DNA of 38,623 bases, taken from a virus (taxonomy: Duplodnaviria; Heunggongvirae; Uroviricota; Caudoviricetes). Positions 1-23,180 of this stretch are shown here, piece after piece; within the stretch, counting starts at the first letter, position 1, and every line of letters starts with the position of its first letter. The notes under the pieces were generated by a model. The model had not been told where the DNA came from. It saw nothing but the letters and a program-made list of their open reading frames with translations, and did no database searches. The stretch lies in the IMG/VR virus record IMGVR_UViG_2684622552_000006, one strand, 5' to 3'. The translations under genes and the position numbers were made by a program.

Positions 1-1686
1 TGCAAGCCTCACAATATAGTTAAATGCGATGTTTTTGACGGTGTTTTCCGCGTTACCAGCAGCGTTAACGGTGATGGTGTGTCCATGTGCACCCAGCGCC
101 ACAGTGTGTGCATGGGCACCAATACCTACGGTGTGGTTATGCTGACCAATATCGACTGTATGGGCGTGTGCTCCGTCAGAGCTTGACACCTGGTTGGTTC
201 CTGACACCTGAACACGTTGTTTACCCCCAATGGAGTCACCACCGTAACGACCACCGACAGTGTGCGTATGCGCTCCTGTATTGTTTGTCGTTTTTGTGCC
301 GTGGTTAAACGTGCTGACTGTTTTTGTCCCGTAATCAAACGAACTGGTTGTTTTCGTACCCAAATCCGTACTGGATGCACTGGCACTGTGGGTATGCGAT
401 TTAATGCCGTCCTGTTCCTGAGACAATACAGCGCGACCACTGGCGGGTTTGCCCTTAATTGTCCAGCCACGCATATCAGGGATCACACCAGATGGGTAAG
501 CTGCTGCAAGCAGGGGATAGGCAGCCTTGTCAAAAGTCTGCCCCTGCATAATCGCATAACCTTCCGGAACTATGTCCGAAGGCCAGGCTATTGGTGCCCC
601 CACAGGAAAAGCATTAACAGGTTCAAATCCCCGTTCAAATCCATACCCATCACGGGATGAGCGGTAATAAAGCCCTCTGTTTTTATAATCCGCACGTAGC
701 TGAAATGACCGGCAACTCCCTACACCACTAAAAAAATGAGCAACGATATATGAAGCGCCGCCGTCCATGACATTGTAAAGACCGCTTTTTGCGTTCCATG
801 GCACCCCACCATCTGAACTCGGATACTGACCTGTACACCCAAGAGAAAAAGCATTTACATCTTCAGGTGATAACTTAATGTCAGATGACAGCGCGTGACC
901 ATTAACCTTACGTCCTGAGGGCACACGCCCGTTTGCATTGTCATTAGCAGCTTTCACTGCTTTCGGAGTCGCGGCAAGCGTTTCAGAGTCACTGTTAGTG
1001 GCGCTGCTTAACTGAACAATCCCTTTTCGTGCCGTGGTGGCGTCCTGTGCAGTGTATTTGCCATCAGCAAGGTCATATGCTGTCTTAACCGCCTTTGATG
1101 TCGCTGCCTGTGTCTCACTGGTGCTGTTCACCGCACTGTTCAGTTGCACCAGACCTTTTTGCTTAGTCGTGGCATCCAGAACACCAAGAGACTCGCGGGA
1201 TTCTTTTTGCGCGCCAGCTCCGCGCGCTTTTATTTCCTTCAGGTTCTGGTCAATGCGCAGAAAAAGTCCGTCTCCCGTTGCCACATTTAACGTGATGTTT
1301 GAGGTGTCAGATACAGCAAGCCGGAACTGCATATTGACACTGACACCGCCAACCGGTTTGTCAATCGCCGGGCAGTTCGCCACGGCATACAATTCCCCTC
1401 CATCAGTCATCAGTCCCACTTCGCGGACTGTAAAACCTCCCGTTCCCGTTGGTAGCACAATTCTGGCCATGAGCTGTGTCGGCTGTTCCGGTGATACCAC
1501 CAGCTCTGCAATATCTCCACGGTAGGTTTCATTAACAAGCTGCGTTTGTGCCGGATCGGGTTTCAGCGGTTTGCCATTACTGTCGCCAACCACAAACTGT
1601 GTCAGAATAATCTGGCTACCACTGGCAAGCGCTTCCGCCTCCAGTTCTTTTCCCCGGTTAGTAATAATTGAATAATATTCAGCCAT
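1..1686 (-). CDS. Tail fibre protein, partial (C-terminus lies beyond window start)
   Basis: Not in the ORF track because no stop falls in the window. I checked every codon of this minus frame from 1686 to 1 and found no stop. ATG at 1686 overlaps the stop of the upstream gpI-like gene. N-terminus [22 protein letters not shown]; internal tandem repeats; window-proximal end has GAHAHTV / GAHGHT His-rich repeats and ends ...[20 protein letters not shown], resembling lambda Stf / T4 gp37-type fibre tips (from memory). Confidence 0.8.
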
Positions 1687-2242
1687 GAGACTCCCCGGCA
1701 AAAATATCCACATCGATATGTGCTGTCGTCGCACCTGAAATATAAAAAGCGCCATCCATCCCGATATTCGCCAGAACATCTATTTTGCTCAGATGACTGC
1801 GCAGGTTTTTAGCCCGGTCAGTAAGCTGACGAATCTGGTGATACAGTGCATCGCTGACGCCCTGACTGCTGTGAACTTCAATCCGGAATGTGTAGGGTGC
1901 AGCCTGCGGTGAATCCTGCCACCACTCCACGACAGTGGTCGGCAGGTTTACCGCCCCCAGAGAACGCCTGACCGCACCCGCCGTTCCCCGGTGCTGGTGC
2001 ACGTAAGCGGCGTCCTTAATCACCTGGCGCTTTTGTGTCTCTGTCCAGCTGTCATCCCAAAAATCGACGGCATGTTCCCACGCAAGCCACGGTAAAAGAT
2101 GTGCCGGGCAGCTGGCCGCATCTTTCACCTTACGCACCATGTTGGTATCCAGTGCGATGATGTGTTCTGTCGTCGCCTGCTCCTGCGCCCGTTCTTCATG
2201 AAATGCGCCCGGCGGCAGCAGGGAGCGAAATTTATCCGTCAT
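1679..2242 (-). CDS. Tail protein I (P2 gpI-like baseplate protein)
   Basis: 187-aa ORF, ATG at 2242, overlaps J stop; sits in the J-I-fibre order typical of P2/Mu baseplate modules. Confidence 0.65.
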
Positions 2243-3152
2243 GGCTGCTTACCTCCCTGCGGGTGACGTTGATGGCAGTACACCACGGTGCTTTTCCGGC
2301 TTCGGCTTCCAGATCAGCCACGGGAGAGATCAGTCTGACGCGAACCACACCGGATTGCTGTAAAGCGGCATAGATGGCAGATAACGGCACCACGGTGTTA
2401 ATCCGGTGAGACAGCATGGTGTAGGACTGCAAGGCTTCAATGGCATTGTTCAGAACTGTCGTGGCGTCCGGGCCGTCCGGGATCTCCAGTTCAGCCGTGA
2501 TGGCATAATTTGTGATGGTGGCGCTCTTCACCGTCACGTAGTCTGTCAATGGACGGATTTCATCGGCATTCAGTGTGCTGTTAACTTTATCCAGCAGTGG
2601 TGCAGCTGCTGTTCCGTCTCCCGTACGGGAAAGCACATACACATCAACACACCCCGGGCGGCTGTGTGTTTCGGGGCCATAAGCTTCAGCATCCAGCACA
2701 TCGGTATCCGCCGATTTCGCATGGAAGCGGTAAGCGTTGCGGGCACCCGCCGTATTTAGCTGTGCCCAGGACAACTGAATACGTTCACGAAATGCGCCGT
2801 CATCTTCCAGTTCCACTTCGACGGGGGGAACGGCATCCGGATCACCCGGTCTGATAACCTGGCGTTTAACATTGAAGGCAGCGCCAATATGATCAAGGTC
2901 TGCGCCTCTGGCGCTGGCAAGAAATACTGCCCGCACTGCATCATTGACACGCTGAAAGGCCAGCGTCAGCTGATATGCATTCACCTCTCCCTGTTTAAAC
3001 GCCGGATCGGACTCTACCAGCGCATCAAACTGCGGATCCAGCTCCTGCAGACGTGCCAGCCATCGGGAGAAAATCTCTGCGGCATCCGGCACTACAAGCG
3101 CATCAGGAACAGCGAGTTCAGACAGATTGATCACATCATAACTGTTGGGCAT
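2232..3152 (-). CDS. Baseplate J-like protein
   Basis: 306-aa ORF following the gpW-like gene; size and position match P2 gpJ / Mu gp47 baseplate wedge proteins. Confidence 0.75.
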   Translation of the reverse strand: MPNSYDVINLSELAVPDALVVPDAAEIFSRWLARLQELDPQFDALVESDPAFKQGEVNAYQLTLAFQRVNDAVRAVFLASARGADLDHIGAAFNVKRQVIRPGDPDAVPPVEVELEDDGAFRERIQLSWAQLNTAGARNAYRFHAKSADTDVLDAEAYGPETHSRPGCVDVYVLSRTGDGTAAAPLLDKVNSTLNADEIRPLTDYVTVKSATITNYAITAELEIPDGPDATTVLNNAIEALQSYTMLSHRINTVVPLSAIYAALQQSGVVRVRLISPVADLEAEAGKAPWCTAINVTRREVSSHDG

Positions 3153-3489
3153 TTAGCGTTATTTCTCCTGTTCTGACGGGTAAGCCGTCTTCTTTTTTGA
3201 TCCCTTCGATATCCAGAACACAGCCGGATTCGCCCGCCGGGAAGGTGACCATCACCCGCGTCACCTTTAAACGCGGCTCCCAGCGAGCCAGTGCAGTCGC
3301 TGAAGCGGCGATTATCCGCAGACGCGTCAGGTCATCCCGTGGGTTATCCAGCAACGAAAACAGTTCACTGCCATAGTCACGGATCAGCACACGACTCCCG
3401 ACGGGCGTGGTCAGAATGTCCCGGACAGACTGGCGCAAATGCGCCACGCCAGACAGACGTTTGCCTGTCCGGCTGTTTACACCGTTCAT
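3136..3489 (-). CDS. Baseplate assembly protein W (GPW/gp25 family)
   Basis: 117-aa ORF; size, position upstream of J and sequence style match gp25/GPW-like baseplate proteins. Confidence 0.75.
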   Translation of the reverse strand: MNGVNSRTGKRLSGVAHLRQSVRDILTTPVGSRVLIRDYGSELFSLLDNPRDDLTRLRIIAASATALARWEPRLKVTRVMVTFPAGESGCVLDIEGIKKEDGLPVRTGEITLNAQQL

Positions 3490-3529
3490 GATGATTTTCC
3501 GTTACAAAAGCGCCGGATGGCGCGATGGA

Positions 3530-4650
3530 TTAACCGAAGTAAGCCGGACCAGTTTTATCCTGTTGCTTCGATTTTTTTGCTGATTTTTGTGGTTTGTGAA
3601 TATCCACCACCAGATTGCAGGTATAACTGAATCCGGCAGCGGTCAGTGAAAAGACCAGCGACTCAACCACCCAGGCTCTGTCTTCCCGGGTACCAAATCC
3701 TGAGGTTGCCACCCCTGCTTCTGCCGTCAGGGGAATATGCTGTGGTCGGCAGGGGCCGGTGAGCGTCATTTTCTGCTCATTCCGTCTTGCCTGTGTTTTT
3801 CGTGCTTTCGCCTGCTTCTCTGCCGTATCCTTTTCTGACTGGGTATACGGGTTGGTCATTGCCGGTCCGTCATGTTCGACCGCTGCGGTTTTTGTCCTGC
3901 CATCCACTTCATCGTAATAGCGAACCCCGATTTTCTCTTTTGCTTTACCCCCCCGCTTTCCGTGACTTTACCCGTGGAACTCCCCCGCTCACCTTCACTG
4001 TATGACCACGTTGTCACGTCTGCAGGCGTAATGGTGATACTGTCAATCTGTTTACCGGAAACTGTCGCTGTCGCCCCCTGCGGCAGAAAAAGCCAGTAAC
4101 CACCGGAAGGTTTACTCACCGCGTTGTAGATGCGGGCAAGCCGGGACAGCAGGTTAGCATCAGATTCAGCCACCTGGTCGATGTGGTTAATGTGAATATC
4201 TTTCAGCGCGGCAGCGACTCTGGGGATCAGGCCATTATCGGTGGCCACGGTTTTCACCACATCCTCCAGACGAATGTTATCCCAGCTTCGTGTTTTCTGA
4301 CTGGTGACGTCACCGGGTTGCTTCCGGGCATTCATGGGCGCTGCGGTGGCATAAATTTCAATGCGCCTCGGTGGCCCACTGCTGGCAACTCCGCTGACAA
4401 CAAACCAGCCTTTATCGACAAGCTGCTCATTAAATCCCAGCGCAACCTGTAGTCGCGCCCCTCTGGGCGGAAGTGTCAGCGTTTCAGAAAGCAGGGTAAT
4501 CTTCAGTTCATCGGCTCTGGCGGTCGCGCCACCGTAATCTGTCAGCGTCAGTTCAGAAAGGCATTGCTCAATTATGCGGGTAATATCTTTCCCTTCTGCC
4601 TTTATGCGGAATGCTGGCGCATATTCAGGAGTCATCGTCTGAGAAACCAT
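3530..4650 (-). pseudogene. Tail protein D (P2 gpD-like), apparently frameshifted
   Basis: Two overlapping minus-strand ORF fragments (3856..4683, 275 aa; 3530..3907, 125 aa) in different frames overlap by 52 nt and together total about 385 aa, the size I recall for gpD. The frame change coincides with a 5-nt homopolymer at 3889..3893. Likely start is ATG 4650, coupled to the gpX stop. Confidence 0.55.
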
Positions 4651-4651
4651 A

Positions 4652-4867
4652 TTAATCCCATAAGCTGAATGCAGACTCCACAACCGGGATCACCCGTTCC
4701 GGCAGAATAACAGACTGACCGGAGGGATATACCGCGCCACGATCAGCCAGCCCGGGATTTGCCTCCAGAACCTGGATTATCGTGTCAGCGAGATTTTCGC
4801 TGCCATAGTGCGCGGCGCAAATCGCATCCAGCACATCACCGTCACGGGTTTGATATATCGTCGGCAT
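4652..4867 (-). CDS. Tail protein X (P2 gpX-like)
   Basis: 71-aa ORF between U-like and D-like genes, matching P2 order T-U-X-D. Confidence 0.6.
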   Translation of the reverse strand: MPTIYQTRDGDVLDAICAAHYGSENLADTIIQVLEANPGLADRGAVYPSGQSVILPERVIPVVESAFSLWD

Positions 4868-5300
4868 AGTGTTTCAGTGTCATTGTCCAGTTTTTATTAC
4901 GGTGACCACCTCCCGGCAGGAACCGGTTAGTGGTGTCAGTAAAGTCAGTTACCACCCACCATCCCAGAACATCCCCTTCTCCACTGACCAGCTGCAGTGG
5001 CTTCGCCTGGTCGGCAAGAGCAAACAGGTCATTGACGGGGCCAACACCTTTTCGAAAAAAGGCATGGGATTCGCCTTCAAGTCTGACGGTACGCCCCGGC
5101 TTTCCGGTGTACTGGAGAAGATCCTGCTTACCAATGCGCTCCTGTTCGCTCCAGCGCCAGGTTGCTTCGCGGGTCAGCTGGTTATAGGCTGTCGTATCAA
5201 TCGAAAAAGCAAAATCTCCCAGCATCATCATCACGCGGGCGGTTCCTGCCGAACGCAGGTTTTCAGCCTGTTGCTGACCAAATTCATCAATAAAAGACAT
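4842..5300 (-). CDS. Tail protein U (P2 gpU-like)
   Basis: ORF immediately after the tape measure gene; ATG at 5300 preceded by GGTGAG; the track start at 5312 is GTG. Confidence 0.6.
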   Translation of the reverse strand: MSFIDEFGQQQAENLRSAGTARVMMMLGDFAFSIDTTAYNQLTREATWRWSEQERIGKQDLLQYTGKPGRTVRLEGESHAFFRKGVGPVNDLFALADQAKPLQLVSGEGDVLGWWVVTDFTDTTNRFLPGGGHRNKNWTMTLKHYADDISNP

Positions 5301-5308
5301 GAAATTAC

Positions 5309-7219
5309 TCACCAGACCAGTCCTCCATCCGTCAGACGGTTGTCCCCGTTAAAAGCCGGATTATTTCGGGTGACCGTGGTCAGTTCATCGGCAATGGCTT
5401 TTTCATCCTGCCCGGGAGCTGCATTAATTTCGAAGTGATAATCAAACTTCCGGTTATCGATAACCTGCCTGGACGGCGGCTGTTTATCCAGTGCGTCCAT
5501 TTTCTGCAGCAGGTTTTCCCAGTAGCCCCCTGTTTTGTCCTCCTGCTCTCTGGCAGAACGCGGATCCGGGGCTTGTTGTTGTCGTGAAGAAAATGTGATT
5601 TCCGGTAGAACAGCAGGAAAGACGGGAGGTAACACATCTTTATTCCAGGCTTCGGTATTGTTCTCCGTCATTGCCGGAACGTAATGCATAAATGTGTTGT
5701 TTTCTGTCGTCGTCGGAGCGGTATGAATAACTGTGTTATTTTCCGTTGTTACCGGGGGCAACGATGCAGACTCCCGCTGGTTACGCTGTAAAGCGGTATT
5801 CCAGTTTAATAAGGATTCGTGGCTTTCCGGGGTCAGATAGTGATCAACAGACTGGTTAAATGCCTCATCATCCGAATCAAAACCCAAATAACCACGTGTC
5901 GATGCCCAGGACTGTTTCACCTTTTCCGGTAAGTCCGGATGCGCTGTTAACTGCTGTTCAAACCATTCCCCCTGTCCACTTCGCTGCGCGGTCAGTCTGG
6001 CAAAGTCAACGGAACCTCTTCTGGCGAGCGCTTTCAGCACATCACGCTGATCTTCACGCTCATCCGGTAACAGCCAGGCCAGTTTTTTAGCCAGCGCATA
6101 GACAATTTTGCCAACAAAAACCACGCCCTGACCAAAGGTCAACACCCCGGGATAAAGATCGTTACGCAGGAAAGTGACAATACGCCTGACGCCGCCCCCT
6201 TTAAACCAGTCTGCCAGATCGTCCGTTAATCGCCGGATATCAGGTGCCAGCTCGTTACCCAGTTGCCCGGAAATCTCCGCCACCGCCGAAGAGAACACCG
6301 TGCGCAGATTACTGATAGCCTGATTACCGGCAATCGCACCTTCTGCCCCCTCCCGGGTCACCAGGTTATAACGACGCTGCTCGTCCATCAGCTCCCGGTA
6401 GCTTCTGCCCGACTGTTTGATCAGCATCAGCAGCTTACTGGCCTCCCCGCCAAAAAGAGAGTCCAGCGCAAAAGATGCTTTTGCCTCATCCTGGAGACTG
6501 AGCGCCCGCTCAACAATTTTATCGAACTGCGCCATATCACTGAGCCCGGCAAAATCGCCCTCTTTAAATCCCAGCGTTTCAAAGGCATCCTGCAGAGAGC
6601 CCTGTTTCCCGTTTTGCTTATACTCACCCGCTTTGTGCAGATACTCCTCAAAAAGGTCACCAATATTTTCGGCATTCATATCGTACTGCCGGGCCAGGGA
6701 GTCCCACGCACTGAAGGTGGCGACATCCACACCGTAGCTTTTCGCCACACTGGCGCGGGTGGCAGTTTCAGCATTCGTTGCTGCCGGGGCGATAAGCGTG
6801 CCGAGCGCTGAGGCCACCACACCACCGCCACCAAATGCCAGTCCGGTACCGAACATACCTCCGACCTGACCGGCAATCCCCAGACCACGCCGGAACAATC
6901 CCTTCCCGGCACCTTTGAATGCCTCAATCCGCTGTGCTTTTTGCATCTGGACATTCAGTTTCTGCTGCTCTGCCTCTGCCTTGCGGATCTCTCTGGAAAC
7001 TTCGCTATAACGGCGTTTCAAGTTTCCCAGACTTTCACCTGCCAGTTTCGCGCGTTTAATTTCAGCAGCCAGTTTTGTCTGCTCCTTTGTCAGACGTTCT
7101 GAACGTTTCCCGACATCATTCAGGCTCTTTTGTAAACCGTCAGCCGATCGCTTCCATGAACTGTCCAGGTTACCGCCAAACGTGATAACGGCTTTAAGAT
7201 TCTGGCTTATTCCGCCCAC
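5309..7219 (-). CDS. Tail tape measure protein
   Basis: 636-aa ORF with coiled-coil-like charged N-terminal half and Gly-rich segments; located after the tail chaperone gene. Starts at GTG 7219 with GGAG upstream. Confidence 0.8.
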   Translation of the reverse strand: MGGISQNLKAVITFGGNLDSSWKRSADGLQKSLNDVGKRSERLTKEQTKLAAEIKRAKLAGESLGNLKRRYSEVSREIRKAEAEQQKLNVQMQKAQRIEAFKGAGKGLFRRGLGIAGQVGGMFGTGLAFGGGGVVASALGTLIAPAATNAETATRASVAKSYGVDVATFSAWDSLARQYDMNAENIGDLFEEYLHKAGEYKQNGKQGSLQDAFETLGFKEGDFAGLSDMAQFDKIVERALSLQDEAKASFALDSLFGGEASKLLMLIKQSGRSYRELMDEQRRYNLVTREGAEGAIAGNQAISNLRTVFSSAVAEISGQLGNELAPDIRRLTDDLADWFKGGGVRRIVTFLRNDLYPGVLTFGQGVVFVGKIVYALAKKLAWLLPDEREDQRDVLKALARRGSVDFARLTAQRSGQGEWFEQQLTAHPDLPEKVKQSWASTRGYLGFDSDDEAFNQSVDHYLTPESHESLLNWNTALQRNQRESASLPPVTTENNTVIHTAPTTTENNTFMHYVPAMTENNTEAWNKDVLPPVFPAVLPEITFSSRQQQAPDPRSAREQEDKTGGYWENLLQKMDALDKQPPSRQVIDNRKFDYHFEINAAPGQDEKAIADELTTVTRNNPAFNGDNRLTDGGLVW

Positions 7220-7321
7220 AGTTCATCGTCTCCAGTTCATCAGTAAGAAAATCAGAGAAAGTGCTGAACGGCATATCCAGATAGTCCGACATCGGAAAAT
7301 GCAGTCGCCGTCCAAGGAGTT

Positions 7322-7621
7322 TTATCGCCCGGAGGAGGTGTCTTTCGGACGCTTCGCGGGCGGTAGCATAAAAACATTGAAGGCATCCAGCAGTTGCGCA
7401 TAGTCTGCAGCCGTCAGTTGCCAGATGTCCTTTTCACTGAGGTTGCACAACAGCGCAATCATCCGGGCTTCTTTTTCTTCTTCATTACCGCGATCTTTGG
7501 CATGAGCAATACGATCGCGCACCAGCGGTTCACGCATCGTCACTTCCTCAAGGATCACGCCACCCTCCAGAATGACAGGGGAAAACAATCGGATAACGCG
7601 GGTTTCACCGGGAAAAGGCAT
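7322..7621 (-). CDS. Tail assembly chaperone (P2 gpE-like)
   Basis: Small acidic ORF between tube and tape measure genes; ATG 7621 preceded by GGAGGTGA. Position typical for the E/E' chaperone pair. Confidence 0.55.
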   Translation of the reverse strand: MPFPGETRVIRLFSPVILEGGVILEEVTMREPLVRDRIAHAKDRGNEEEKEARMIALLCNLSEKDIWQLTAADYAQLLDAFNVFMLPPAKRPKDTSSGR

Positions 7622-7679
7622 AATCACCTCCATTAAAAAACGGCCCGCAGGCCGTCAGGTAGTTAAAGAACGGGAATAA

Positions 7680-8186
7680 TCAGAGACGAACTTTTGCCGC
7701 CAGACCCGACAACATATCGACACCATTTACCCGACGGGAAAAGCGCTCGGTATCAATGGCAAACAGTTCACGACCATCCAGCGTCTGTCGGTAATAACTG
7801 ACCGCAATATCGACCGTGATAGCATTTTCAGAAAGATTATCCTTACCCCGCGCATCCGGCGTGACAGCCTGAATAAACCCTTCAATTTCCTCAACAGTAC
7901 CGCGAGCAGTACCGTTGCCGAGATACCCCTGGTAGGCCGTAAAGCGGGAACGACTGCCACTGACAAATCCAAAGCTGGCCAGCATATCCGTGTCCAGACC
8001 GTAAAATTTCACCTGACAGGTCAGTGCTTCCATCCCGTCATCCACGGGCGTGGGCGCATCCTGGGCACCAGTTCGCAGGTCAGTTTTCACGATTGTCAGC
8101 GATGGTGGCGTAAACTCATGCGCCCCCTGAATACGGATCCCCTGCCGGAAGAAAGTCCAGGCACGTAGTGTATTTTTATCGCTCAT
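7680..8186 (-). CDS. Tail tube protein (FII-like)
   Basis: 168-aa ORF immediately downstream of the sheath gene with a 4-nt overlap; size typical of myovirus tube proteins. Confidence 0.75.
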   Translation of the reverse strand: MSDKNTLRAWTFFRQGIRIQGAHEFTPPSLTIVKTDLRTGAQDAPTPVDDGMEALTCQVKFYGLDTDMLASFGFVSGSRSRFTAYQGYLGNGTARGTVEEIEGFIQAVTPDARGKDNLSENAITVDIAVSYYRQTLDGRELFAIDTERFSRRVNGVDMLSGLAAKVRL

Positions 8187-9652
8187 GCTGCCAGCATCTC
8201 CTCAAGCGCATAGTTATTATTCACCCGGACGCGCAAACTGATAAGTTCAGTCGGCGATTTCGGTCCAAAGTCATAGTTGATATACAGGACACCTGCCGCC
8301 ATGCTCTCTGCGGTATTAAGTTCTTCATCCAGCCAGGCCCGACCGCCGAAGATGGCGCCCAGTCCGACCAGTTGTCGCATATAGGCATTAATGGTGCCGA
8401 TAATGTCATCGGCATTTTCGCGATCCAGCGGACGGTCAACATACTCCAGCATGGTTTCCTGAATGCTGTCCTCGATAACATCTGCTGTACGTCGTACGGA
8501 TTCAAAACGCCACTGCGGATCGGTTGCGCACAGACGGTTTCCCCAGTGTTTAAAGCCCGCACGACGGATAATGGTGGATACGTTCTGCATGTTGAGCAGG
8601 TTCGCATCGCAGTTTTCATCCCCGAGAATAAATTCGTCGATCTGCTCCACCCCGAGGATATTGTTGATGTCCTGGTTCGATTTGCTCCACCACCAGCCCT
8701 TTTCGTAGTCGATACGGGCACGTAATCCGGCGGCAAAAGCAGAGTAAGGGCGATACACTAACTGGCCATCCGCATCGGCAGCCTGAACACGCGGTCGCAA
8801 CAGTTCAGTACGGGCACCATAGGACTGACGGCGCTGTACCACCTCCTGCAACGTTGCACCGGAAGCACAGTCAACATAAGCCACCGCGCGTAATTTCCCG
8901 GCCACCGTTTCCAGGGCTTTCCCGACCGCATCGTCCTCACTAAATCCCGGCGCAATCACAATACGTGGCTGATACGTGGTAATGGATTTTGCTGATGACA
9001 GAAGCCCAATCCCTTTCAGTATGGCTGCCCGTTTTTTTGCCCCGTCAGTTTCATCAGCCACCCGCACCACCACTGTCAGCGCATTACGCTGATCATTAAT
9101 CTCTGTCAGCGCCTGTTTGAGAGTCCCCTTGTCTCCCAGACGATTAATGAGCGCGGTGCCCGCCACAGCCACAGGCGTATTTAACGGAAAAGGCTCATCT
9201 TCGCCCCCTTCCAGCTTTACACTGAACGTTGCCAACAGCCCCTCGCCACTGCCTTCGGCCTGAACTTTGACGCCATCCAGCGCATTGACCACACTGACCA
9301 CATCAGCAGGTCGCGCCGTGATCACCCCCTGCTCATCACAGCCCAGTGTCACCGTCAGTTTGTGCGTAACGTCATCCCAGGATGCCGATGTGTTAACAGC
9401 CTGCGGGCTTTCCGTATCTGGTACCGCCGCCACCGCGTCCACCTGGATAACATTGCCAGCCCGGCCCCTCTCCTTTGCTGTGAAGTTCAGAACGTTATCC
9501 AGAATCGGCGTCCCGGTGGTGACCGCTGCCGCACTCCCGGCAGACGACTCCGGTGCCGTGCCCACCAGACCGATAATAGCCGTCTGGATAGTGGTCACCG
9601 CCACAGTTCCCGAGGTCAGTTCAATTGTTTCAACACCATGTAACTGAGACAT
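8183..9652 (-). CDS. Tail sheath protein (FI-like)
   Basis: About 490-aa ORF; ATG 9652 preceded by GGAGAAAG; followed by the tube gene in canonical sheath-tube order. Confidence 0.8.
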   Translation of the reverse strand: MSQLHGVETIELTSGTVAVTTIQTAIIGLVGTAPESSAGSAAAVTTGTPILDNVLNFTAKERGRAGNVIQVDAVAAVPDTESPQAVNTSASWDDVTHKLTVTLGCDEQGVITARPADVVSVVNALDGVKVQAEGSGEGLLATFSVKLEGGEDEPFPLNTPVAVAGTALINRLGDKGTLKQALTEINDQRNALTVVVRVADETDGAKKRAAILKGIGLLSSAKSITTYQPRIVIAPGFSEDDAVGKALETVAGKLRAVAYVDCASGATLQEVVQRRQSYGARTELLRPRVQAADADGQLVYRPYSAFAAGLRARIDYEKGWWWSKSNQDINNILGVEQIDEFILGDENCDANLLNMQNVSTIIRRAGFKHWGNRLCATDPQWRFESVRRTADVIEDSIQETMLEYVDRPLDRENADDIIGTINAYMRQLVGLGAIFGGRAWLDEELNTAESMAAGVLYINYDFGPKSPTELISLRVRVNNNYALEEMLAA

Positions 9653-9689
9653 GTCTTTCTCCAGCCATAAAAAAACCTGCCGCAGCAGG

Positions 9690-10307
9690 TCACATTTTCT
9701 GATTAGGTTTATCCGTACTCCCGCCACTGTCGCCGGGGTGGTTGTGCTCGTTAAAGATGTTGCGGATCCCGCTCATACTGCCGGTTTTGTCGGTAATTTC
9801 TGCAGAGGCACCAATATTACCCTTCACCGTCGTATCGGCGTTAATCTGCGTTTTCCCCTGTACAGTCAGGGTATCGGTGATTTCAACCGGACCATCAAGC
9901 GTACCCTTACCGGTGATTTTGTAAGTGCCTCCTTCGGTCAGGGTGATCGTCAGGGCATGAGCTGCCCGGTCATACCGGATCTCTGTGCCGTCGCTGTAAC
10001 GGGTAATATGTTCGCTGTCGCTGCCCTCCGGCACGGGTAATTTCCCGGTGTTCCAGCCAGGAAACACCCGCCCGTTGTTTAACTCTCCGGCCTCCGACAA
10101 CACTGTCACCGCATCACCGACGGCATAAGGATTCGAATCAGCCCGGTTTGCGCCAGAAAAACCCTGACACAGCGGCAGCCAGGTCGTGATGATATCGCCC
10201 AGATCAACCCGGCATTTGGGGATACCATCATGCCGGACAGAATGAATCACACCGCGTCGTACCAGATTTGCCAGTCTGCGTTGCAAATCCCCTGTAATGT
10301 CACTCAT
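9690..10307 (-). CDS. Baseplate spike / assembly protein V (gpV-like)
   Basis: N-terminal region (RRGVIHSV...KCRVDLGD...TTWLP) and C-terminal EHNHPGDSGGSTDKP match the gpV pattern I recall (OB-fold N-term, C-terminal HxH...PGDSGG). ATG at 10307. Confidence 0.7.
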   Translation of the reverse strand: MSDITGDLQRRLANLVRRGVIHSVRHDGIPKCRVDLGDIITTWLPLCQGFSGANRADSNPYAVGDAVTVLSEAGELNNGRVFPGWNTGKLPVPEGSDSEHITRYSDGTEIRYDRAAHALTITLTEGGTYKITGKGTLDGPVEITDTLTVQGKTQINADTTVKGNIGASAEITDKTGSMSGIRNIFNEHNHPGDSGGSTDKPNQKM

Positions 10308-10851
10308 CAGCTCCTGCCTCCAGGATAAGGTAATAGTCGTCCACATGCTGCCGCCCCGTATCCGGTGCTACTCCCAGCCAGACCTGACTCAGTGGCATAG
10401 CGGTGCGGGCGAACGGATCCACGCCAAAAGCTGCCTCCTGGGTAAACGACACCCGCCACACCAGGTAGTCATCCATGCGAGGATCAAATTCGTCACGCTC
10501 TGCAGCAGTGAATACGGCGGGTGAAATGTGAGTCAGACCAAACTGTTGCCCGTCAATCCACTGCGTAATATCTGCTGCCGCTGTTCGCAGGAAGATTTCC
10601 GGACAACTGAGACCAGACGCGGCATCAACCACCACATAAAGATCGCACGAGAGTTCAACATTGAGTTGCCCCTCATTGCCGCCGTTCTGCTCCCAGCTGT
10701 TAATGGTGAAATACACGGCAGGCGTCACCAGCCCGGTGAAACGGGGAATATTTTTTTCAGGATAAGCTCCGGCATCACTTACCCACGTTATCTGCTTCAG
10801 CGCACTGATAACCGCATCGTGGTATCGGGCCAGAGATAAAGGTTCAGCCAT
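10300..10851 (-). CDS. Hypothetical virion morphogenesis / tail completion protein
   Basis: 183-aa ORF in the head-tail junction block; no family recognised by eye. Confidence 0.45.
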   Translation of the reverse strand: MAEPLSLARYHDAVISALKQITWVSDAGAYPEKNIPRFTGLVTPAVYFTINSWEQNGGNEGQLNVELSCDLYVVVDAASGLSCPEIFLRTAAADITQWIDGQQFGLTHISPAVFTAAERDEFDPRMDDYLVWRVSFTQEAAFGVDPFARTAMPLSQVWLGVAPDTGRQHVDDYYLILEAGADE

Positions 10852-10861
10852 TGTGATGACC

Positions 10862-11518
10862 TCATACCGATATCCTGGCTTTCACCCGCCCACGGATATC
10901 TGTTTCAAAATGGTGCATGAAAATGTCCATTGCTTCGGCAAAGGCGTTATCTTCAATGTAATTGAGCATCGGTTCATAAATATCCACCTCAGCTTCCCGG
11001 GTACGCCGGGTTTGCGGATCACGAATAACCACCGTTCGCCGGTTCTCTCGTTTTGAGCGGGCGACTTCGCCATTTTCGAAGGTCAGTGTCGAAAGCAGAC
11101 TGCCTTTAGGCGTAAACCCGGCATTTTTTACCTGTCGACGAGCTTTGATAAAACGCCCCGTGGATTTATCCCGCAGGGTATGGCGCGGGCGTAGCCGCCC
11201 GTTAATTCGCCCTTTCAGGTCTTTAACCTTAATGGCGTTGAGACCAAACCAGATCCTGAAATTATCCAGCCGGGAGCCTCTGTCGAGGCGAAAAGAGAGC
11301 AGACGGCGGCGTACCAGCCCGATACTGCGCGGCGCCAGCCCGTCTTTCAGATCAGCCAGCGCTTTTTTGCGCAGGGTGGCAGCAGTTCGTCTGAGCGCCC
11401 GGGAGTAGGCTGCCCGAAACTGTTTTTGTGTGGCACCGATACTGTCCGCAATCTGCCAGATAGCATCCACATCAATATCGATCGGTAAATCCCGTCGCAG
11501 TCTGAATCCTCGCGCCAT
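10862..11518 (-). CDS. Hypothetical Arg-rich virion morphogenesis protein
   Basis: ATG at 11518 (MARGFRLRRD...) lies 2 nt after the stop of the upstream gene; the longer track ORF overlaps that gene by 92 nt and is probably an over-extension. Confidence 0.4.
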   Translation of the reverse strand: MARGFRLRRDLPIDIDVDAIWQIADSIGATQKQFRAAYSRALRRTAATLRKKALADLKDGLAPRSIGLVRRRLLSFRLDRGSRLDNFRIWFGLNAIKVKDLKGRINGRLRPRHTLRDKSTGRFIKARRQVKNAGFTPKGSLLSTLTFENGEVARSKRENRRTVVIRDPQTRRTREAEVDIYEPMLNYIEDNAFAEAMDIFMHHFETDIRGRVKARISV

Positions 11519-11519
11519 A

Positions 11520-11876
11520 TCAGCTCCATTGTTCAATCGGTGGCTGAACGTTTCCCGGTGCGCCATACGCCAGCGTGACACGGGTGCGCCCGGCTTCGTT
11601 CGCACCGACATGCGTTACCCGGTAGCGAATATTGTTCACCACCACCTCATCATGCCTGGACAGTCCGACAATATCCGTCGTCATCGCACTGAATGCCGGG
11701 GCGTGATTGCTGATTTCTCCGCCACCCGGAACACTGACCGGAGCATCCGGCGTTTCAAAAATCACATTCACCTGACGACATTCATTACCGATGTACAACA
11801 CTGCGGGGTATGGCTGCGCAAAAAGTCGCGTTATGCGGGCCTCTGCCCGCATCAGCCGTTCATGGAAATTGCCCAT
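11520..11876 (-). CDS. Hypothetical head-tail joining protein
   Basis: ATG 11876 overlaps the upstream stop (ATGA coupling); position between head and tail modules. Confidence 0.4.
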   Translation of the reverse strand: MGNFHERLMRAEARITRLFAQPYPAVLYIGNECRQVNVIFETPDAPVSVPGGGEISNHAPAFSAMTTDIVGLSRHDEVVVNNIRYRVTHVGANEAGRTRVTLAYGAPGNVQPPIEQWS

Positions 11877-12205
11877 CAGTAACCGAGACGCACACACACG
11901 GTAGCATCGCTGGTTTCTGCCGCTGCCCATACGGTTCCCACCAGCGCATTGCCCGATTCTGTTGCTGTCAGCGTGGCAGTATCAGACCTGAGATATACCC
12001 GTTTTCCCTGTGTCAGTTCTTCAGCTTCTTTGGGTAATGCAAAAATCCCCGTGGTATGCAAAACACCTGAGCCATCCTGCAGAATATCCGCATGCGCCAC
12101 CCCGATCAGATTGTCTTTAACGACCAGTTCCCCGGATAAGACTGTTTTACCGCTATCGTTCACCCATTCAACGGTCGTACCGTCCTGAACATAATTTTTT
12201 GACAT
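11876..12205 (-). CDS. Small head-associated protein (DUF2190-like)
   Basis: 109-aa ORF directly after the capsid gene terminator; ATG 12205 preceded by GGAGGT. Family assignment from memory only. Confidence 0.45.
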   Translation of the reverse strand: MSKNYVQDGTTVEWVNDSGKTVLSGELVVKDNLIGVAHADILQDGSGVLHTTGIFALPKEAEELTQGKRVYLRSDTATLTATESGNALVGTVWAAAETSDATVCVRLGY

Positions 12206-12247
12206 TTTTACCTCCGGTATAAGCGGCTCCCGACGGTGCCGCCTGAG

Positions 12248-12273
12248 TAAAAAAAACCGCCTGACGCGGCGGT
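12248..12273 (-). terminator. Hairpin and T-run immediately after the protease-capsid gene
   Basis: Stem ACCGCC/GGCGGT with 6-nt loop, followed on the minus strand by eight or more T residues; sits between the capsid stop (12277) and the next start (12205). Confidence 0.6.
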
Positions 12274-12276
12274 GAA

Positions 12277-14355
12277 TTACTGTTTTTTGACTTTAACCAT
12301 GCCACGCCAGTCAAGCGGTGCGACCCCGGCATCAATGCGCACTTTGAATGCGGCCCCGTCAACGGTAAAGCCCTGCTGCTGTTCCAGATACGGAGTATCG
12401 ATACCGTCAAGATAAGCCACTTCAATCGTGTCACGCCCCTGTGCCGCCACCAGGTAATAATCGGTCGGGCTGCTGTCATCCAGACGGGCTTCTGACAGAA
12501 CGGTGGCAAAGTTCTGGATCGGGTTAACAATGCCGCTGTTGGCATCTGCCCCCGGTACACTGGAAGATTTAATTAACTGACTTGCCCGGGATTCAATGGC
12601 AACAGGTGTCAGCATAAAGGCCGGACGAATATTCAGGCGGCGGCTACCGGACTTTTGCAGCAACATGGCTTTACGCCCTGCATCCAGTCCTTCAATGGAC
12701 AGATCCGCAGTCACCAGGTTGCCGTGATCGGCATGGAACAACGGTTTACCATCAGACATTTTCGGGTTGCTGGTCAGTACGGCCCAGACAAGATCGCCCA
12801 CTGTGGTACGCGCTGCTGCTCCCATTGCCATCGGAATACGGGTCAGCATATCCAGGTCATCGTTAATGATGGTCTGGCGATCAATGCTGAAGAGTTCGCC
12901 ATACGTAGCCAGCGCAATGGGCTCACCGCGATCTTTAAGGGTTACATACTTATATTCAGCGCCCGGCTGAACCTGTCGCAGGGTCGGGAAAGCCTCCAGC
13001 CCCACACGGTGGGCAGTTTTAAAATCTGACAGCGTGCCCTTGCGGGTCCACTGGTCAAACGTTTCACTGGCGCTGCCCCAGCCCTGCAGTGCCGCTTTGT
13101 GAGCAACATCCATCAGGATATTGCCAAAGTCACTGCCACTGTGGGTGAATGCCAGCCCCACCATTGCCATCGGTGCGGCATGTCCGGAAATTCCGATGCC
13201 GCGATCCACCAGTGAGGCACGCGCCAGTTCGCGTAGCGTAAAGCCGTTATAGGCATTGTCTTTTTCGGCTTCGCTGTACCCTGCGCGAGCCATCACTGCT
13301 GCACGGATGGAATCACCCACCAGATTGCCGTTTCCTGCGTAAATGTGTGCTGCTCCCGGCCCGGCACAGGGCGTGGTACCCGCCGCCAGCGCCTGCAGCA
13401 GTCGTTCACGGGCTTTTTCAGCCGAGCAGGTGAAATCGCTCAGGCATTCCGCTTTCAGCGAGGCGAATGCCGGAAATGCGTCGAACACGGCAGAGACGGC
13501 GTTCACGCGTTCCGCATTGGCAGCCTGCATCTGCTGCTGTAGCTGAGTGGCCAGCGCGGCAATATCTACGGCGCCTGGCTGCGGTGTGTCCTGAGATACC
13601 TGTGGTGCCGGAGGCTGGCTGGCCTGCAGTGGGGTAACCTGAGTTTCTGCACGCGGAGCAAAAAGAGCATTAACCTGTTCTGGCATATTCTGATAATCCT
13701 TCAGTTTATTTTGGTTCACACAGGCCGCAGCCTGTAATTCGGGTTCGAGGGAGTCTGCAAAGCCCTTTTCCACAGCTTCAGCGCCGCTGAGCCAGGTTTC
13801 CGATTTCAGCATGGCCTCCAGCTCCTCCTGCCCCAGTCCGGTTTTATTCATGTAGGCAGACAGCATCAGCGCCTCGTTGCGATCCAGCCAGTCGGCATAA
13901 TCACGCATATCATCGGAATCACCGGCGATCCCGCCCCAGGGCTTATGCACCATAATCCAGGCGTTTTCAGGCATATGTACTGTGGCTCCGGGAAGGCAGA
14001 CGATCATCGATGCCATACTGGCAGCGACACCATCCACCCAGATATCCACCTTCGCTTTCAGGCGTGACAGCGTGTTAAAGATGGCAAAGCCCTGCATCAC
14101 ATCACCGCCCGGGCTGTGGATATGCAGATCAATGGCGCTGGCCTCAAACACCCCCGCATCTTTACAGTCAGTGATAAACTGCTGCGCGGTGATGCCCCAT
14201 CCACCAATCACGTCATAGAGGAAAATTTCCACCCGTCCGGTTGCCTGTGCACGGATTTCGTACCAGCACTGACCGTTTGCGGCATCGACACCCGCAAGGC
14301 TGGCGCGGGGATTAATCGTCATCCCGCGACAGGGCGGGCTTATCATTTGCTGCAT
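12277..14355 (-). CDS. Prohead protease (ClpP/S14-like) fused to major capsid protein
   Basis: N-terminal part carries ClpP-like prohead protease motifs (HIHSPGGDV...GVAASMAS...MVHKPWGG); the C-terminal roughly 400 aa is capsid-like. Start chosen at ATG 14355 with AAAGGAG 9 nt upstream; ATG 14322 is an alternative. Domain split judged by eye. Confidence 0.75.
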   Translation of the reverse strand: MQQMISPPCRGMTINPRASLAGVDAANGQCWYEIRAQATGRVEIFLYDVIGGWGITAQQFITDCKDAGVFEASAIDLHIHSPGGDVMQGFAIFNTLSRLKAKVDIWVDGVAASMASMIVCLPGATVHMPENAWIMVHKPWGGIAGDSDDMRDYADWLDRNEALMLSAYMNKTGLGQEELEAMLKSETWLSGAEAVEKGFADSLEPELQAAACVNQNKLKDYQNMPEQVNALFAPRAETQVTPLQASQPPAPQVSQDTPQPGAVDIAALATQLQQQMQAANAERVNAVSAVFDAFPAFASLKAECLSDFTCSAEKARERLLQALAAGTTPCAGPGAAHIYAGNGNLVGDSIRAAVMARAGYSEAEKDNAYNGFTLRELARASLVDRGIGISGHAAPMAMVGLAFTHSGSDFGNILMDVAHKAALQGWGSASETFDQWTRKGTLSDFKTAHRVGLEAFPTLRQVQPGAEYKYVTLKDRGEPIALATYGELFSIDRQTIINDDLDMLTRIPMAMGAAARTTVGDLVWAVLTSNPKMSDGKPLFHADHGNLVTADLSIEGLDAGRKAMLLQKSGSRRLNIRPAFMLTPVAIESRASQLIKSSSVPGADANSGIVNPIQNFATVLSEARLDDSSPTDYYLVAAQGRDTIEVAYLDGIDTPYLEQQQGFTVDGAAFKVRIDAGVAPLDWRGMVKVKKQ

Positions 14356-15823
14356 CAGGGAGCACTCCTTTATCGTTGGCGGCGTCAGAATCGAACACCA
14401 GCCCGTTTTGTCGGTTAAATTCGGTTTCACGCATTCGCTGGCGTTTGACCTCCTGCGGTGACTGCCCTCTGGCACGGATCCACTCGGCTTCCGTTCCTGC
14501 ACCACCACGAAGAATGGCCCGCCATGCTGCAGCCTCTTTGACGGGGTCAATCCACGGCATCACCGGACCAAGATAGGTCGCGTTAAAAAGCGTGGTTTTG
14601 TCGATATCAGGCGGGATATCCATGTCAAGCAACGCCATTGCCAGCCAGGCGCGGTACACCGGACGGCTGAACTGCCCCACAAACCATTGCTGCAGGACGT
14701 TATAACCTTCGTAACTTTCCACCAGTTCCTGACGTTGTGCGCTGTAGGTGCCGTTATAGTCACGGGCAATACTGGAATAGCTGCCGCGACTCCCGGCGGC
14801 AACCGCCCGCAGTTGCCCGTTACGAAACTCATGGAGGTGGACGTTCGGACGGTTTGACTCAACCATGCCCAGATCTTCCCCCGGCGCCAGGTCGTCGAAA
14901 ATCATGCCTGGCGCAATATCAAAGTGGCGGTACTTTTGTCCTGAGGGTTTCCAGTCTTCATCCGCCGGAAAGCTGGCGGCATCACCACGCTTGATGTAGA
15001 AGCCCAGCGCGGCAGCAATGCGGGCAGCCACACGTTCGCTCTCTTCGTAGTCCTTAATGTCACCCAGACGGCGGATCACCCCATGAAGCAGACTTATGCC
15101 ACGTAACTGGTGAAGGCGTTTACGCTGGGCAAGGTGCAGCATGTTCTCTGCCGCAATGGTTTTCAGTTCAGCGCTGAAGCGCGTCATACTGGCCGGGTGA
15201 TATTTGTAAACCCGGTAACCAACAGGACGCCCCCAGTCGTTAACGATAATGCCCTGGCGGATCTGCTGCCCCGATGTGCTGTTAAGACTGAACGGGACAA
15301 AATCAGCTTCCAGCAGTTCCAGTGAAAACGGCACTCGGGTTGCGTGCGTCAGTCCGGCAACCGGGCCCCGCACCAGCTGCGTGAACATCTCACCATCACG
15401 CAGTGCTGAACGCAGCGCCAGTCGCTCGGCTTCCGGACGGGTAAACACCCCCGTCACCTCCGGACGCACCGACCATTCCGACCAGAGTGCAGATATCTGT
15501 GCTGCAAATTCTTCATGCAGCTTACCGTCCAGACTGAGCGGTTGCGGCTCCACCTGGATCCCCTGCGCACCAATAACACGTTCTTCCAGCTTATCCAGCA
15601 GACCAATCACTATGTCATGGTCTTCATCCAGTGCCCGTGCCTGCTCACGCAGAGATACGCCAGCCACACCCACCGCAGTATCTGCCGCCCGACTCTCACG
15701 TTTTGTTTTGTTCACTCTGGAGGGGTGCGCCGCCTCGTAGGCGCGAAGAAGCATTCTGTTTCTGGCGCGCGAAACAGCCCACCCTGGCGCAATCGCGCCA
15801 AGTGCCCTGTCAAAAATGCCCAT
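14312..15823 (-). CDS. Portal protein (lambda gpB-like)
   Basis: 503-aa ORF after terminase large subunit and the gpW-like gene, matching lambda order A-W-B. Confidence 0.8.
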   Translation of the reverse strand: MGIFDRALGAIAPGWAVSRARNRMLLRAYEAAHPSRVNKTKRESRAADTAVGVAGVSLREQARALDEDHDIVIGLLDKLEERVIGAQGIQVEPQPLSLDGKLHEEFAAQISALWSEWSVRPEVTGVFTRPEAERLALRSALRDGEMFTQLVRGPVAGLTHATRVPFSLELLEADFVPFSLNSTSGQQIRQGIIVNDWGRPVGYRVYKYHPASMTRFSAELKTIAAENMLHLAQRKRLHQLRGISLLHGVIRRLGDIKDYEESERVAARIAAALGFYIKRGDAASFPADEDWKPSGQKYRHFDIAPGMIFDDLAPGEDLGMVESNRPNVHLHEFRNGQLRAVAAGSRGSYSSIARDYNGTYSAQRQELVESYEGYNVLQQWFVGQFSRPVYRAWLAMALLDMDIPPDIDKTTLFNATYLGPVMPWIDPVKEAAAWRAILRGGAGTEAEWIRARGQSPQEVKRQRMRETEFNRQNGLVFDSDAANDKGVLPDAANDKPALSRDDD

Positions 15824-20947: not shown

Positions 20948-21679
20948 TTACATCATGTCTTTTTCTAAAAAAAATCTTGATGAATATTGATGGGGAGGAA
21001 CACCAAAATATCTTCTGAAAACACTTACAAAATATGACGTATTTTTATAACCGCATATCTCAGCAACTTTTCCAACAGAATATAAATTGTAGCTTAATAA
21101 CCTTTCCGCCATCACCATTCGCTCTTCAAGAATTAACTTACTAAATGATAAGCCTTCGTGCTTTAATTTTCTTTTTAACAGACTTTCACTCAGATACAGT
21201 CTTGAAGATATATCACAAAGTCTCCATGCTGCAGATATATCCGTGTGAATAATAGCCTTAACTTTACTTCCTAAACTATTAAGACATCCAAATAAAAAAC
21301 TTTGCACTATTTTCTCTGAAGATAAGATAGCAAGACATGCAAGTGATATTTGATTTCTAACAAAATCCACAGTTCTGCCATCACAATTCAAGCATGCAAT
21401 CAAGTTCTTTAACAATGAAAAATCTTCACATTCCACCATCAAGTATGCCGGATAAAACCTTCTTACAGAAAAAGGTGAGAGTGTGTTGCTTTTAAAGAAA
21501 TCATTAACTGTTTTCTCTTCAACATCTACGATCATTACATGATCTATATTTGATGAAAAAAAATCTTTTAAATTGTAATCAATGAGAACAGCACTTCCTT
21601 TTTTAAACAAAATATCTTCTTTACCAATTCGGGCATCAAACGAATTCAACACCAAAATGATAGAACATATGTATGGCAT
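20948..21679 (-). CDS. AraC-family transcriptional regulator (AppY/PatE-like cargo)
   Basis: C-terminal AraC-type HTH (YSVGKVAEICGYKNTSYFVSVFRRYFGVPPHQY); visibly AT-rich; sits between Q and holin. ATG 21679 preceded by AGGTGG; the track start at 21688 is GTG. Confidence 0.8.
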   Translation of the reverse strand: MPYICSIILVLNSFDARIGKEDILFKKGSAVLIDYNLKDFFSSNIDHVMIVDVEEKTVNDFFKSNTLSPFSVRRFYPAYLMVECEDFSLLKNLIACLNCDGRTVDFVRNQISLACLAILSSEKIVQSFLFGCLNSLGSKVKAIIHTDISAAWRLCDISSRLYLSESLLKRKLKHEGLSFSKLILEERMVMAERLLSYNLYSVGKVAEICGYKNTSYFVSVFRRYFGVPPHQYSSRFFLEKDMM

Positions 21680-22028
21680 ATTATCCACCTGATATCATTG
21701 AGGTTACACCAGGTAAGTATAGGTGGAAAATCAATATTCGCCAGTTCAACAATAAGGAAAATCTCATTGCATCACAAGTATAAAATTATGTATTTAACTC
21801 ACAAAGACAAATTATTAAACCAATCTGTTATATTATATATAGCTGCGTGGAATCATAATATTATATTTTGACTGGCATGTTTACCAACTTTAAGTTGCAT
21901 CTCAATGGTTTCTTCAGCGTAAACAGAGTTTTTATACAAACTGACACTCTGGGTATCATAGTGTAGTTTTTACGATTGTAAATATCCTGCATGCAGGAAC
22001 TCATCCTTTTGGATGATATCGCATACAA

Positions 22029-22988
22029 TTAATTTACCATCAGTCTTAGAGCCAGTTCGTCCGGATAGGGATCGAAGTAATTCTGTGTAAGCAAGTAATC
22101 ATTAGGATACTCACCCAGATAATGCTTCAGCAGAGTCAACGGCGCAAGAAGAGGTAATGTGCCAGAACGATAGTTAAGTATAACCTCGCTCAACTCTTTA
22201 CGCTGGCGTGTACTTAAGTAGTTACTAAAATACCCCTGTATATGCATCAGCACATTCGTGTGATTTTTACGTGATGCAGGTTTTCTGAGAATCGCCATCA
22301 GCTTATCACGATACACCTCAAAGTATGATTCAAGGTCCGCCCACTCGTGTATTGCAGCCACAAATGGTCCCATATCTTTATAGCCTGCCTGACTATGCGC
22401 CAATAACTGAAGCTTATAACGACTATGAAAAGCTAATAACTCTCTTCTTGATAATTTCTCCTTGTAAAGATGATTGAGCTCATGCAAAGCAAAAACTCTT
22501 TCAACAAAATTCTCACGAAGCACTGGATCATGTAATCGCCCATCCTCTTCAACCGGTAGCCAGGAAAACTTTTCCATCAAAGTGCTCGTAAATAGTCCCA
22601 CTCCATCTTTACGACCTTGATTACCATTTTCATCATAGACACGCACGCGCTCCATGCCACAGCTGGGAGATTTAGCACAAACCACAAATCCCGATACATC
22701 CTTTAATTTGTCCATATAAGAACGACTAAACTCTGTCATTCTCTCTGTCACATCCTCATTCTGGTCGTGGCTGAAACACATCCGTATATTTCCTTGCGTC
22801 GAGCGCACAAGACGTAGAGCAGGACGCGGAACTGGCAGCCCTATAGCCATTTCTGGACATACTGGTCTGAATGTTACCCATTCCACTAATTTGTCCATTA
22901 AAAAGTCAGCTCTTTTGTGACCACCATCAAAACGAACAGCAGAACCGGTCAAACAACCGCTGATTCCAATCACAGGTTTTTTTATCAT
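22029..22988 (-). CDS. DUF523/DUF1722 fusion protein (YbgA/TudS-like)
   Basis: N-terminal Cys-containing ISGCLTG...VRFDGGHKR resembles DUF523; C-terminal half resembles DUF1722. From memory only. ATG 22988 with GGGGGAG upstream. Confidence 0.5.
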   Translation of the reverse strand: MIKKPVIGISGCLTGSAVRFDGGHKRADFLMDKLVEWVTFRPVCPEMAIGLPVPRPALRLVRSTQGNIRMCFSHDQNEDVTERMTEFSRSYMDKLKDVSGFVVCAKSPSCGMERVRVYDENGNQGRKDGVGLFTSTLMEKFSWLPVEEDGRLHDPVLRENFVERVFALHELNHLYKEKLSRRELLAFHSRYKLQLLAHSQAGYKDMGPFVAAIHEWADLESYFEVYRDKLMAILRKPASRKNHTNVLMHIQGYFSNYLSTRQRKELSEVILNYRSGTLPLLAPLTLLKHYLGEYPNDYLLTQNYFDPYPDELALRLMVN

Positions 22989-23180
22989 ATTCTCCCCCTT
23001 GACTAATTCATTAACACATAAACTGTGTAGTGCACGGAATAAATTGCCTTTCTGGCGTCATCACTGACAATTTTTCTGTTATGGACTATTCCTAATATAG
23101 TATGAAAGTTCTTTAAGTGATCGGTCGTAATCATCTATCTTTCATACTTACTCTCAACTATCAAAAGTACAGGATTTATT

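Follow-up and report, generated by a model that had tools for sequence, protein, structure and literature searches.

The gpD-like tail gene of the prophage studied here is spread over two reading frames, which raises the questions of where the gene was broken, whether the break is real, and what it would mean for the phage. The window (the whole stretch of DNA that was analysed, 38,623 nucleotides [nt]) is, in reverse complement, the opening 38.6 kb of contig JZWN02000026.1 from a ground beef isolate, Escherichia fergusonii GTA-EF03. The element it carries is a lambdoid prophage whose contractile tail is of the P2/Mu type. The gpD-like gene (3530..4650, minus strand) lies between two intact genes on the same strand, that of tail protein X upstream (gpX, LysM-like, PF05489; 4652..4867) and that of the gpW/gp25 baseplate wedge protein downstream (PF04965; 3136..3489); an intact gene for a gpU-like tail protein (4842..5312, minus strand) lies next to gpX. 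An initial annotation, made from the letters of the sequence, described one gene, broken at a homopolymer, with all other structural genes of the prophage looking intact, and this description was borne out.

Reading of the open reading frames (ORFs) showed that frame A begins at an ATG at 4650 or a TTG at 4683 and ends with a TGA at 3856..3858 (264 or 275 amino acids [aa], respectively), and that frame B ends with a TAA at 3530..3532 and is open upstream to 3967, with the nearest upstream stop at 3968..3970. Both frames are open across 3856..3967. This span contains a G7 run (3948..3954, minus strand; C7 on the plus strand) and an A5 run (3889..3893, minus strand; T5 on the plus strand), and any +1 insertion within it would formally join the two ORFs. 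The initial annotation had correctly seen the split between two frames and the A5 run within their overlap; it had taken the first GTG as the start of frame B, however, and so gave the overlap as 3856..3907. In the databases, the two pieces stand as separate entries, each called “hypothetical protein.” The N-terminal fragment (WP_236713848.1, 264 aa; 3856..4650, minus strand) consists of 234 authentic gpD residues (1 to 234) followed by out-of-frame residues 235 to 264, and the second entry (WP_046080616.1; 3530..3859, minus strand) is an ORF of 109 aa whose ATG overlaps the TGA of the N-terminal fragment (ATGA, 3856..3859). The authentic C-terminal coding part in the other frame is longer, extending over 3530..3946 (minus strand) and encoding residues 235 to 372 of the intact protein plus the stop codon.

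Comparison with homologues showed that the gene is naturally a single one. Among 5.8 billion proteins searched, 161 homologues were found at an E value of ≤1e-10; the full-length ones, whose identity ranges down to 50%, each consist of one protein of about 355 to 400 aa. The initial annotation had considered that intact homologues might naturally be only about 275 aa long and be followed by an independent gene; this is not the case, as the intact homologues have about 372 aa. In the alignment, the N-terminal fragment tracks the homologues up to GKVTESGG and then diverges into a tail that fits none of them, while frame B carries on with KAKEKIGVRYYDEVDG, matching every homologue. Coverage of the PHROG 52 profile agrees with this picture: the intact protein covers profile positions 185 to 531, the N-terminal fragment (residues 3 to 232) positions 185 to 405, and the 109-aa C-terminal fragment positions 433 to 531.

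The site of the lesion was located by alignment to intact alleles. A copy with 99.4% identity is present in three complete E. coli genomes, where it encodes one protein of 372 aa, annotated as “contractile injection system protein, VgrG/Pvc8 family,” and a base-by-base alignment over 1,401 nt with such a copy contained six substitutions and a single indel, namely, G7 in the window and G5 in the intact copy. The same indel was seen against E. fergusonii copies, the loci in CP057565.1, CP057344.1, and AHHN01000020.1 (L005, L006, and L008), from which window positions 1..14650 differ by one mismatch and the 2-nt G insertion. That mismatch, the only one in the 14.65 kb of structural genes, is at 4682 and is synonymous for valine in gpX (GTT versus GTA). 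The same single-nucleotide polymorphism (SNP) also creates the TTG that the ORF finder took as the upstream start of the gpD fragment. Deletion of two G's from the window sequence gives a protein identical to P0124, which is on record in 74 contigs of E. fergusonii and other Escherichia. The ten P0124-encoding loci that were read all have G5, which holds by construction, as these loci were picked through the intact protein. A DNA pattern with a variable gap over the G-run, which requires exact flanks and so covers very close relatives only, likewise found only G5, in two IMG/VR viral contigs and one JGI/ENA metagenome contig. Its single match in the genome_contigs collection, CACGGAAAGC-GTGTTGA-TAAAGCAAAAGAG, was rejected as a chance match to an unrelated ORF in a delta-proteobacterial metagenome-assembled genome. 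We conclude that the sequence places the lesion at the G7 run at 3948..3954, with two G's more than the G5 of every intact copy read.

The A5 run is therefore not the lesion. The initial annotation had proposed that an A is missing at 3889..3893, and this run does lie in the region where both frames are open, so that +1 there would fuse the ORFs. However, the A5 run and its flanking bases are identical in all intact copies, in which the only indel is in the G-run 55 to 65 nt upstream. Moreover, between the G-run and the A5 run, the conserved KAKEKIGVRYYDEVDGRTK is read from frame B and aligns with all homologues, which the translation of frame A does not. We regard a missing A as almost certainly wrong. 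The proposed repair by one extra A, to a single ORF of about 385 aa, holds in the formal sense that the two ORFs would be fused, but about 20 residues would be out of frame (VKQKRKSGFAITMKWMAGQK replacing KAKEKIGVRYYDEVDGRTK), which would destroy a conserved beta-strand. Judged from the sequence, an added A would thus not give the real protein; the intact allele is shorter by two G's, and a gain of one G would likewise bring back the frame. The computed products are 372 aa for G5 (the intact allele, 1,119 nt) and 373 aa for G8, with an immediate TAA for G6 and G9. These lengths are counted from the ATG, the RefSeq choice of start, and the proposed length is approached only from the upstream TTG (about 383 and 384 aa, respectively). 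A homopolymer within the overlap of two ORFs need not be where the indel occurred, which only an alignment with an intact allele can locate.

Sequence profiles, the predicted fold, and the gene neighborhood together identify the intact protein, on modelled evidence, as a baseplate hub of the gp27/Mu gp44/pyocin R2 type, homologous to P2 gpD. The repaired (intact) protein matched PHROG 52 over residues 3 to 366 (E = 4.7e-97), and the family profile matched the pyocin R2 hub in the Protein Data Bank (6u5h_C) over residues 11 to 342 (E = 1.3e-30). PF05954 is precomputed on all close homologues; in a local Pfam scan, the intact protein scored 28.1 bits, just below the cutoff of 30.1 (E = 1.4e-6, residues 119 to 335). 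An AlphaFold2 model of the intact allele, built from a 65-sequence alignment (mean pLDDT of 81.7, pTM of 0.76), was matched by Foldseek with a probability of 1.0 to 6u5h_A, 3cdd, 1wru, 9ki1_G, 1k28_D, and the gp27-like part of VgrG and extracellular contractile injection system (eCIS) spikes. Target-normalized TM scores were 0.64 to 0.73 against hubs of the same size, at 13 to 23% sequence identity. The hubs that share the predicted fold are those of pyocin R2 (6U5H), Mu (gp44; 1WRU, 9KI1), MuSo2 (43-kDa protein, 3CDD), and T4 (gp27, 1K28) and the N-terminal part of VgrG. The genes adjoining the window copy (gpU, gpX, gpW, and gpJ) fit the comparison with these solved hubs, and the full order gpU, gpX, D, gpW/gp25, gpJ, gpI is the position expected in a contractile-tail module; the window copy differs in being truncated after about 63% of the fold. 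From the established structures of the pyocin R2, Mu, and T4 hubs, we take the gpD-like protein to be the trimeric central hub on which the baseplate is assembled.

In the model, the G-run encodes the last two glycines of a low-confidence loop (residues 222 to 234, RGSSTGKVTESGG) that is predicted to be disordered, and loop length at this site differs among homologues. Translation of the window allele departs from the true frame after Gly234 and stops 30 missense codons later, so that the conserved C-terminal 138 residues are severed from the N-terminal part. Seven predicted strands or helices follow the site (residues 238 to 246, 251 to 259, 273 to 289, 292 to 299, 312 to 315, 325 to 336, and 339 to 348), as do the invariant residues G250, A276, M294, E310, T315, F318, G319, E322, D323, W326, E329, G339, and L346. 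Since a conserved and structured third of the predicted fold is removed, the hub function would be lost. Members of the hub family have an uninterrupted ORF of about 330 to 400 aa, and the window copy is split at G7 into ORFs of 264 and 109 or 125 aa; because its ORF is broken, it is a pseudogene of this family and not a working member.

Whether G7 is a mutation or an error depends on how the sequence was obtained. The genome of GTA-EF03 was sequenced on an Illumina MiSeq instrument at 132× coverage, and the reads were corrected with Quake and assembled with SPAdes (PMC4832150). The Logan assembly of SRR1916749 likewise has G7 and matches the NCBI assembly at 100% identity across 23 kb, strain-specific early genes included; the two evidently derive from the same isolate's reads and are not independent biological replicates, and the agreement of a second assembler working from raw reads argues against an assembler artefact. 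A consensus error of +2 in a run of 5 to 7 nt is very unlikely for MiSeq data at 132×, which favors a genuine mutation, and we consider G7 most likely to be one. The alternative, that the strain truly has G5 (or G8) and an intact gene and that sequencing or assembly introduced the difference, is unlikely but deserves some weight, given that the lesion falls in a homopolymer, where indel errors classically occur, that the G7 allele was found in one isolate only, and that the reads were k-mer error corrected prior to assembly. In addition, the other frameshifted members of the same 90% cluster come from Logan assemblies, and one of them has several shifts, as is typical of noisy reads. These members (P0121 and P0123, both 263 aa, and P0122, 375 aa) had been tried as evidence of a mutational hotspot and were rejected: their shifts are elsewhere, at an upstream G5 (3982..3986) or at several places, and stem from short Logan contigs, and they are probably read noise.

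Two further readings would leave the sequence as it is and rescue the function in another way. The G-run might be a recoding site, with programmed or leaky −1 ribosomal frameshifting on C GGG GGG G, or a phase-variable switch for tails, such that slippage from G7 to G8 or low-level −1 slippage of the ribosome supplies the hub. A tRNA-Gly on the second GGG could indeed re-pair perfectly one base back, which would give the product of the G8 allele; by analogy with the solved hub trimers, three hub copies per tail might be enough; and G-runs of 7 or more are mutable. Were this so, lysogens would keep a mostly silent but resuscitable prophage, a form of bet-hedging on phage release. Nevertheless, we hold this to be very improbable. 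None of the about 160 homologues, all of them single ORFs, needs a frameshift, and conservation of a −1 site among them was thus not seen; phage Chris1 reads AGC GGA GGA at the site, with no run. Close strains show no ON/OFF variation in tract length, with G5 in every other copy read, ten of those loci having been selected via the intact protein, and an exact look-up on this protein background, a weak search that needs the exact sequence, found none of the hypothetical G6, G8, and G9 products. Nor is the zero-frame C GGG GGG of the canonical X XXY YYZ form, and the RNA downstream of the G-run, inspected for a stimulator of −1 frameshifting, has no structure above shuffled controls (z = −0.6).

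Slightly less probable still is a hub made of two polypeptides, the 264-aa N-terminal fragment and the 109-aa C-terminal fragment, the latter reinitiated at the ATGA at 3856..3859. The stop of the N-terminal fragment does overlap an in-frame ATG of the C-terminal frame, and both pieces are annotated as proteins, but residues 235 to 263 would be in neither piece. Two predicted beta-strands (238 to 246 and 251 to 259) lie there, together with G250, which is invariant, and Y244, T252, H259, and G261, which are nearly so. The N-terminal fragment would further carry 30 missense residues, the ATG is preceded by no clear Shine-Dalgarno sequence, and no homologue is naturally divided in this way.

The reading that we prefer, with a probability of roughly 0.78, is a recent slippage from G5 to G7 that produced a null allele of the element's only hub gene, so that induction would lead to lysis and to filled heads without tails. 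Two G's would have been gained in the G5 run, most likely by replication slippage, a change that is a rarer outcome than +1 or −1 and to that extent counts against this reading, as does the failure of the exact look-up on this protein background to find a G6 or G8 intermediate. The sequence comparison suggests that the lesion is very recent, since the rest of the 14.65 kb is identical to functional-looking copies bar one synonymous SNP. The truncated protein would be unable to form the trimeric hub that nucleates the baseplate, and the induced prophage would lyse its host and package DNA but release tail-less, noninfectious particles. Low-level −1 slippage of the ribosome, or another hub gene at a different place in the genome, could supply some hub protein, of which three copies per tail may suffice if the solved hub trimers are a guide. 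Among the options named in the initial annotation, an inactivating mutation is thus the best supported and a sequencing error is less likely, given Illumina data at 132× and two assemblies with G7; a slippage-prone tract applies only trivially, G-runs being mutable, with no sign of a programmed or phase-variable site.

The defect should be reversible. A gain of one G (G8) or a loss of two would restore the protein, and rare infectious revertants would therefore be expected, comparable to those of the Salmonella prophage ST64B. G8 would add only one glycine at the end of the predicted disordered, length-variable loop, and such revertants should for this reason be viable. A tail-gene frameshift (sb21/sb22) is reported to make that prophage defective (PMC5322425, PMC7067206). 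The likeness, drawn from these descriptions, is that one frameshift in an essential tail gene yields two annotated ORFs in a prophage that is otherwise complete (PMC5322425, PMC7067206); in the window, too, the lambdoid gene set is complete and one essential tail gene is frameshifted, with the fibre-assembly end beyond the contig. The two cases differ in that the ST64B lesion is reported to be conserved in many strains and its defect and reversion to have been shown experimentally, whereas the window lesion was seen in the sequence of one isolate.

Among known elements, the closest is the cluster of WP_046076955.1/P0124 (“VgrG/Pvc8 family” or “late control protein D”) in prophages of E. fergusonii, E. 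coli, and E. albertii. Its protein is identical to that of the window minus two G's, and its structural module differs by 1 SNP in 14.65 kb; the cluster has G5 and a single 372-aa ORF, whereas the window has G7 and two fragments. A megablast search of the gene against the phage collection gave no matches, and a search in protein mode found Citrobacter phage Chris1 and Hafnia phage yong2. Chris1 (ON041214.1) is the nearest isolated phage; its “tail formation protein D” is 82% identical in amino acid sequence over the full length, and its ClpP-capsid fusion, sheath, tube, chaperone, tape measure, U, X, D, W, J, I, and fibre genes are syntenic. It differs in having an intact gene of 372 aa that lacks a G-run at the site (AGCGGAGGA), another host, and other early genes. 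The window thus holds an ordinary, strain-specific homopolymer frameshift in a well-known tail gene of a known prophage lineage, which has little significance beyond annotation. For annotation, WP_236713848.1 and WP_046080616.1 belong together as the halves of a single gpD pseudogene, and, judged from its sequence, the GTA-EF03 prophage should be scored as probably tail defective. For work on prophage induction or host range with this food isolate, it matters that infectious revertants are plausible on induction, since the lesion would be one revertible slippage event and the prophage is pristine in other respects.

The gene content of the element was read along the window. The early region comprises an integrase gene beside proBA and genes for xis, exo (YqaJ), RecT, gam, kil, a cI-type repressor, O, P, nin functions, and RusA, and the late part runs from Q through three cargo genes to those for holin, lysozyme, Rz, Bor, terminase, portal, the ClpP-capsid fusion, and the contractile tail. 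The early half was judged by its complete-looking gene set only, intact reference copies having been found only for the structural half; in a look-up, the replication protein O was found only in GTA-EF03 and on two short contigs from metagenomes. The three cargo genes, which do not look like phage genes, lie between the Q antiterminator gene and the lysis cassette (20948..23705) and encode an AraC-family regulator (20948..21688, minus strand), a DUF1722/2-thiouracil-desulfurase-like protein (22029..22988, minus strand), and a lipocalin (23181..23705, plus strand). The contig, and with it the window, starts 3 nt before the end of a 562-aa tail-fibre gene (window 1..3), so that the tail-fibre assembly gene (14651..15235 of L005 in the intact copies) and the far prophage end fall outside the window; the assembly probably broke off here because the sequence recurs in other prophages.

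Several related records have broken tail modules of their own. The gpD gene is intact in each of three further loci, in which the tape measure gene is split by a change from G5 to G4 (L007 8452, GCA_020034715.1), the tail-fibre gene is split by a change from T7 to T6 (L011 13913, UGFW01000002.1), or the tail-fibre gene is frameshifted by loss of one A from an AA dinucleotide (L009 13162, DAJIYU010000004.1). These are either independent decay of the tail module or homopolymer sequencing errors. E. coli SW071611 (NZ_CM129855.1, L001 2139..3121) has a remnant with an IS1 element at the 5′ end of the tail-tube gene, beside a truncated GABA permease gene; in remnants of this type, everything upstream of the tube gene is gone and the gpD, baseplate, and fibre genes are intact ORFs. 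Among complete E. coli genomes, those that have the tail module at >99% identity all hold a remnant. A distant gpD homologue (41% identity) in Escherichia phage vB_EcoM-705R4 (ON470624.1, L021 1468..2512) was matched in two pieces, as were those of ON470627.1 and ON470596.1. The pieces are annotated as “tail formation protein D” (257 aa) and “hypothetical protein, Gene D protein” (54 aa), and the gpD of the sister record vB_EcoM-720R5 was matched in one piece; records of the vB_EcoM-705R4 type may represent another split gpD. In the window itself, at 7220..7633, a tail assembly chaperone gene (99 aa, PF10109) is separated from the tape measure gene by about 100 nt in which no gene was called, and the gap between these two genes is the usual place of the gpE/E′ programmed −1 frameshift in P2-type tails.
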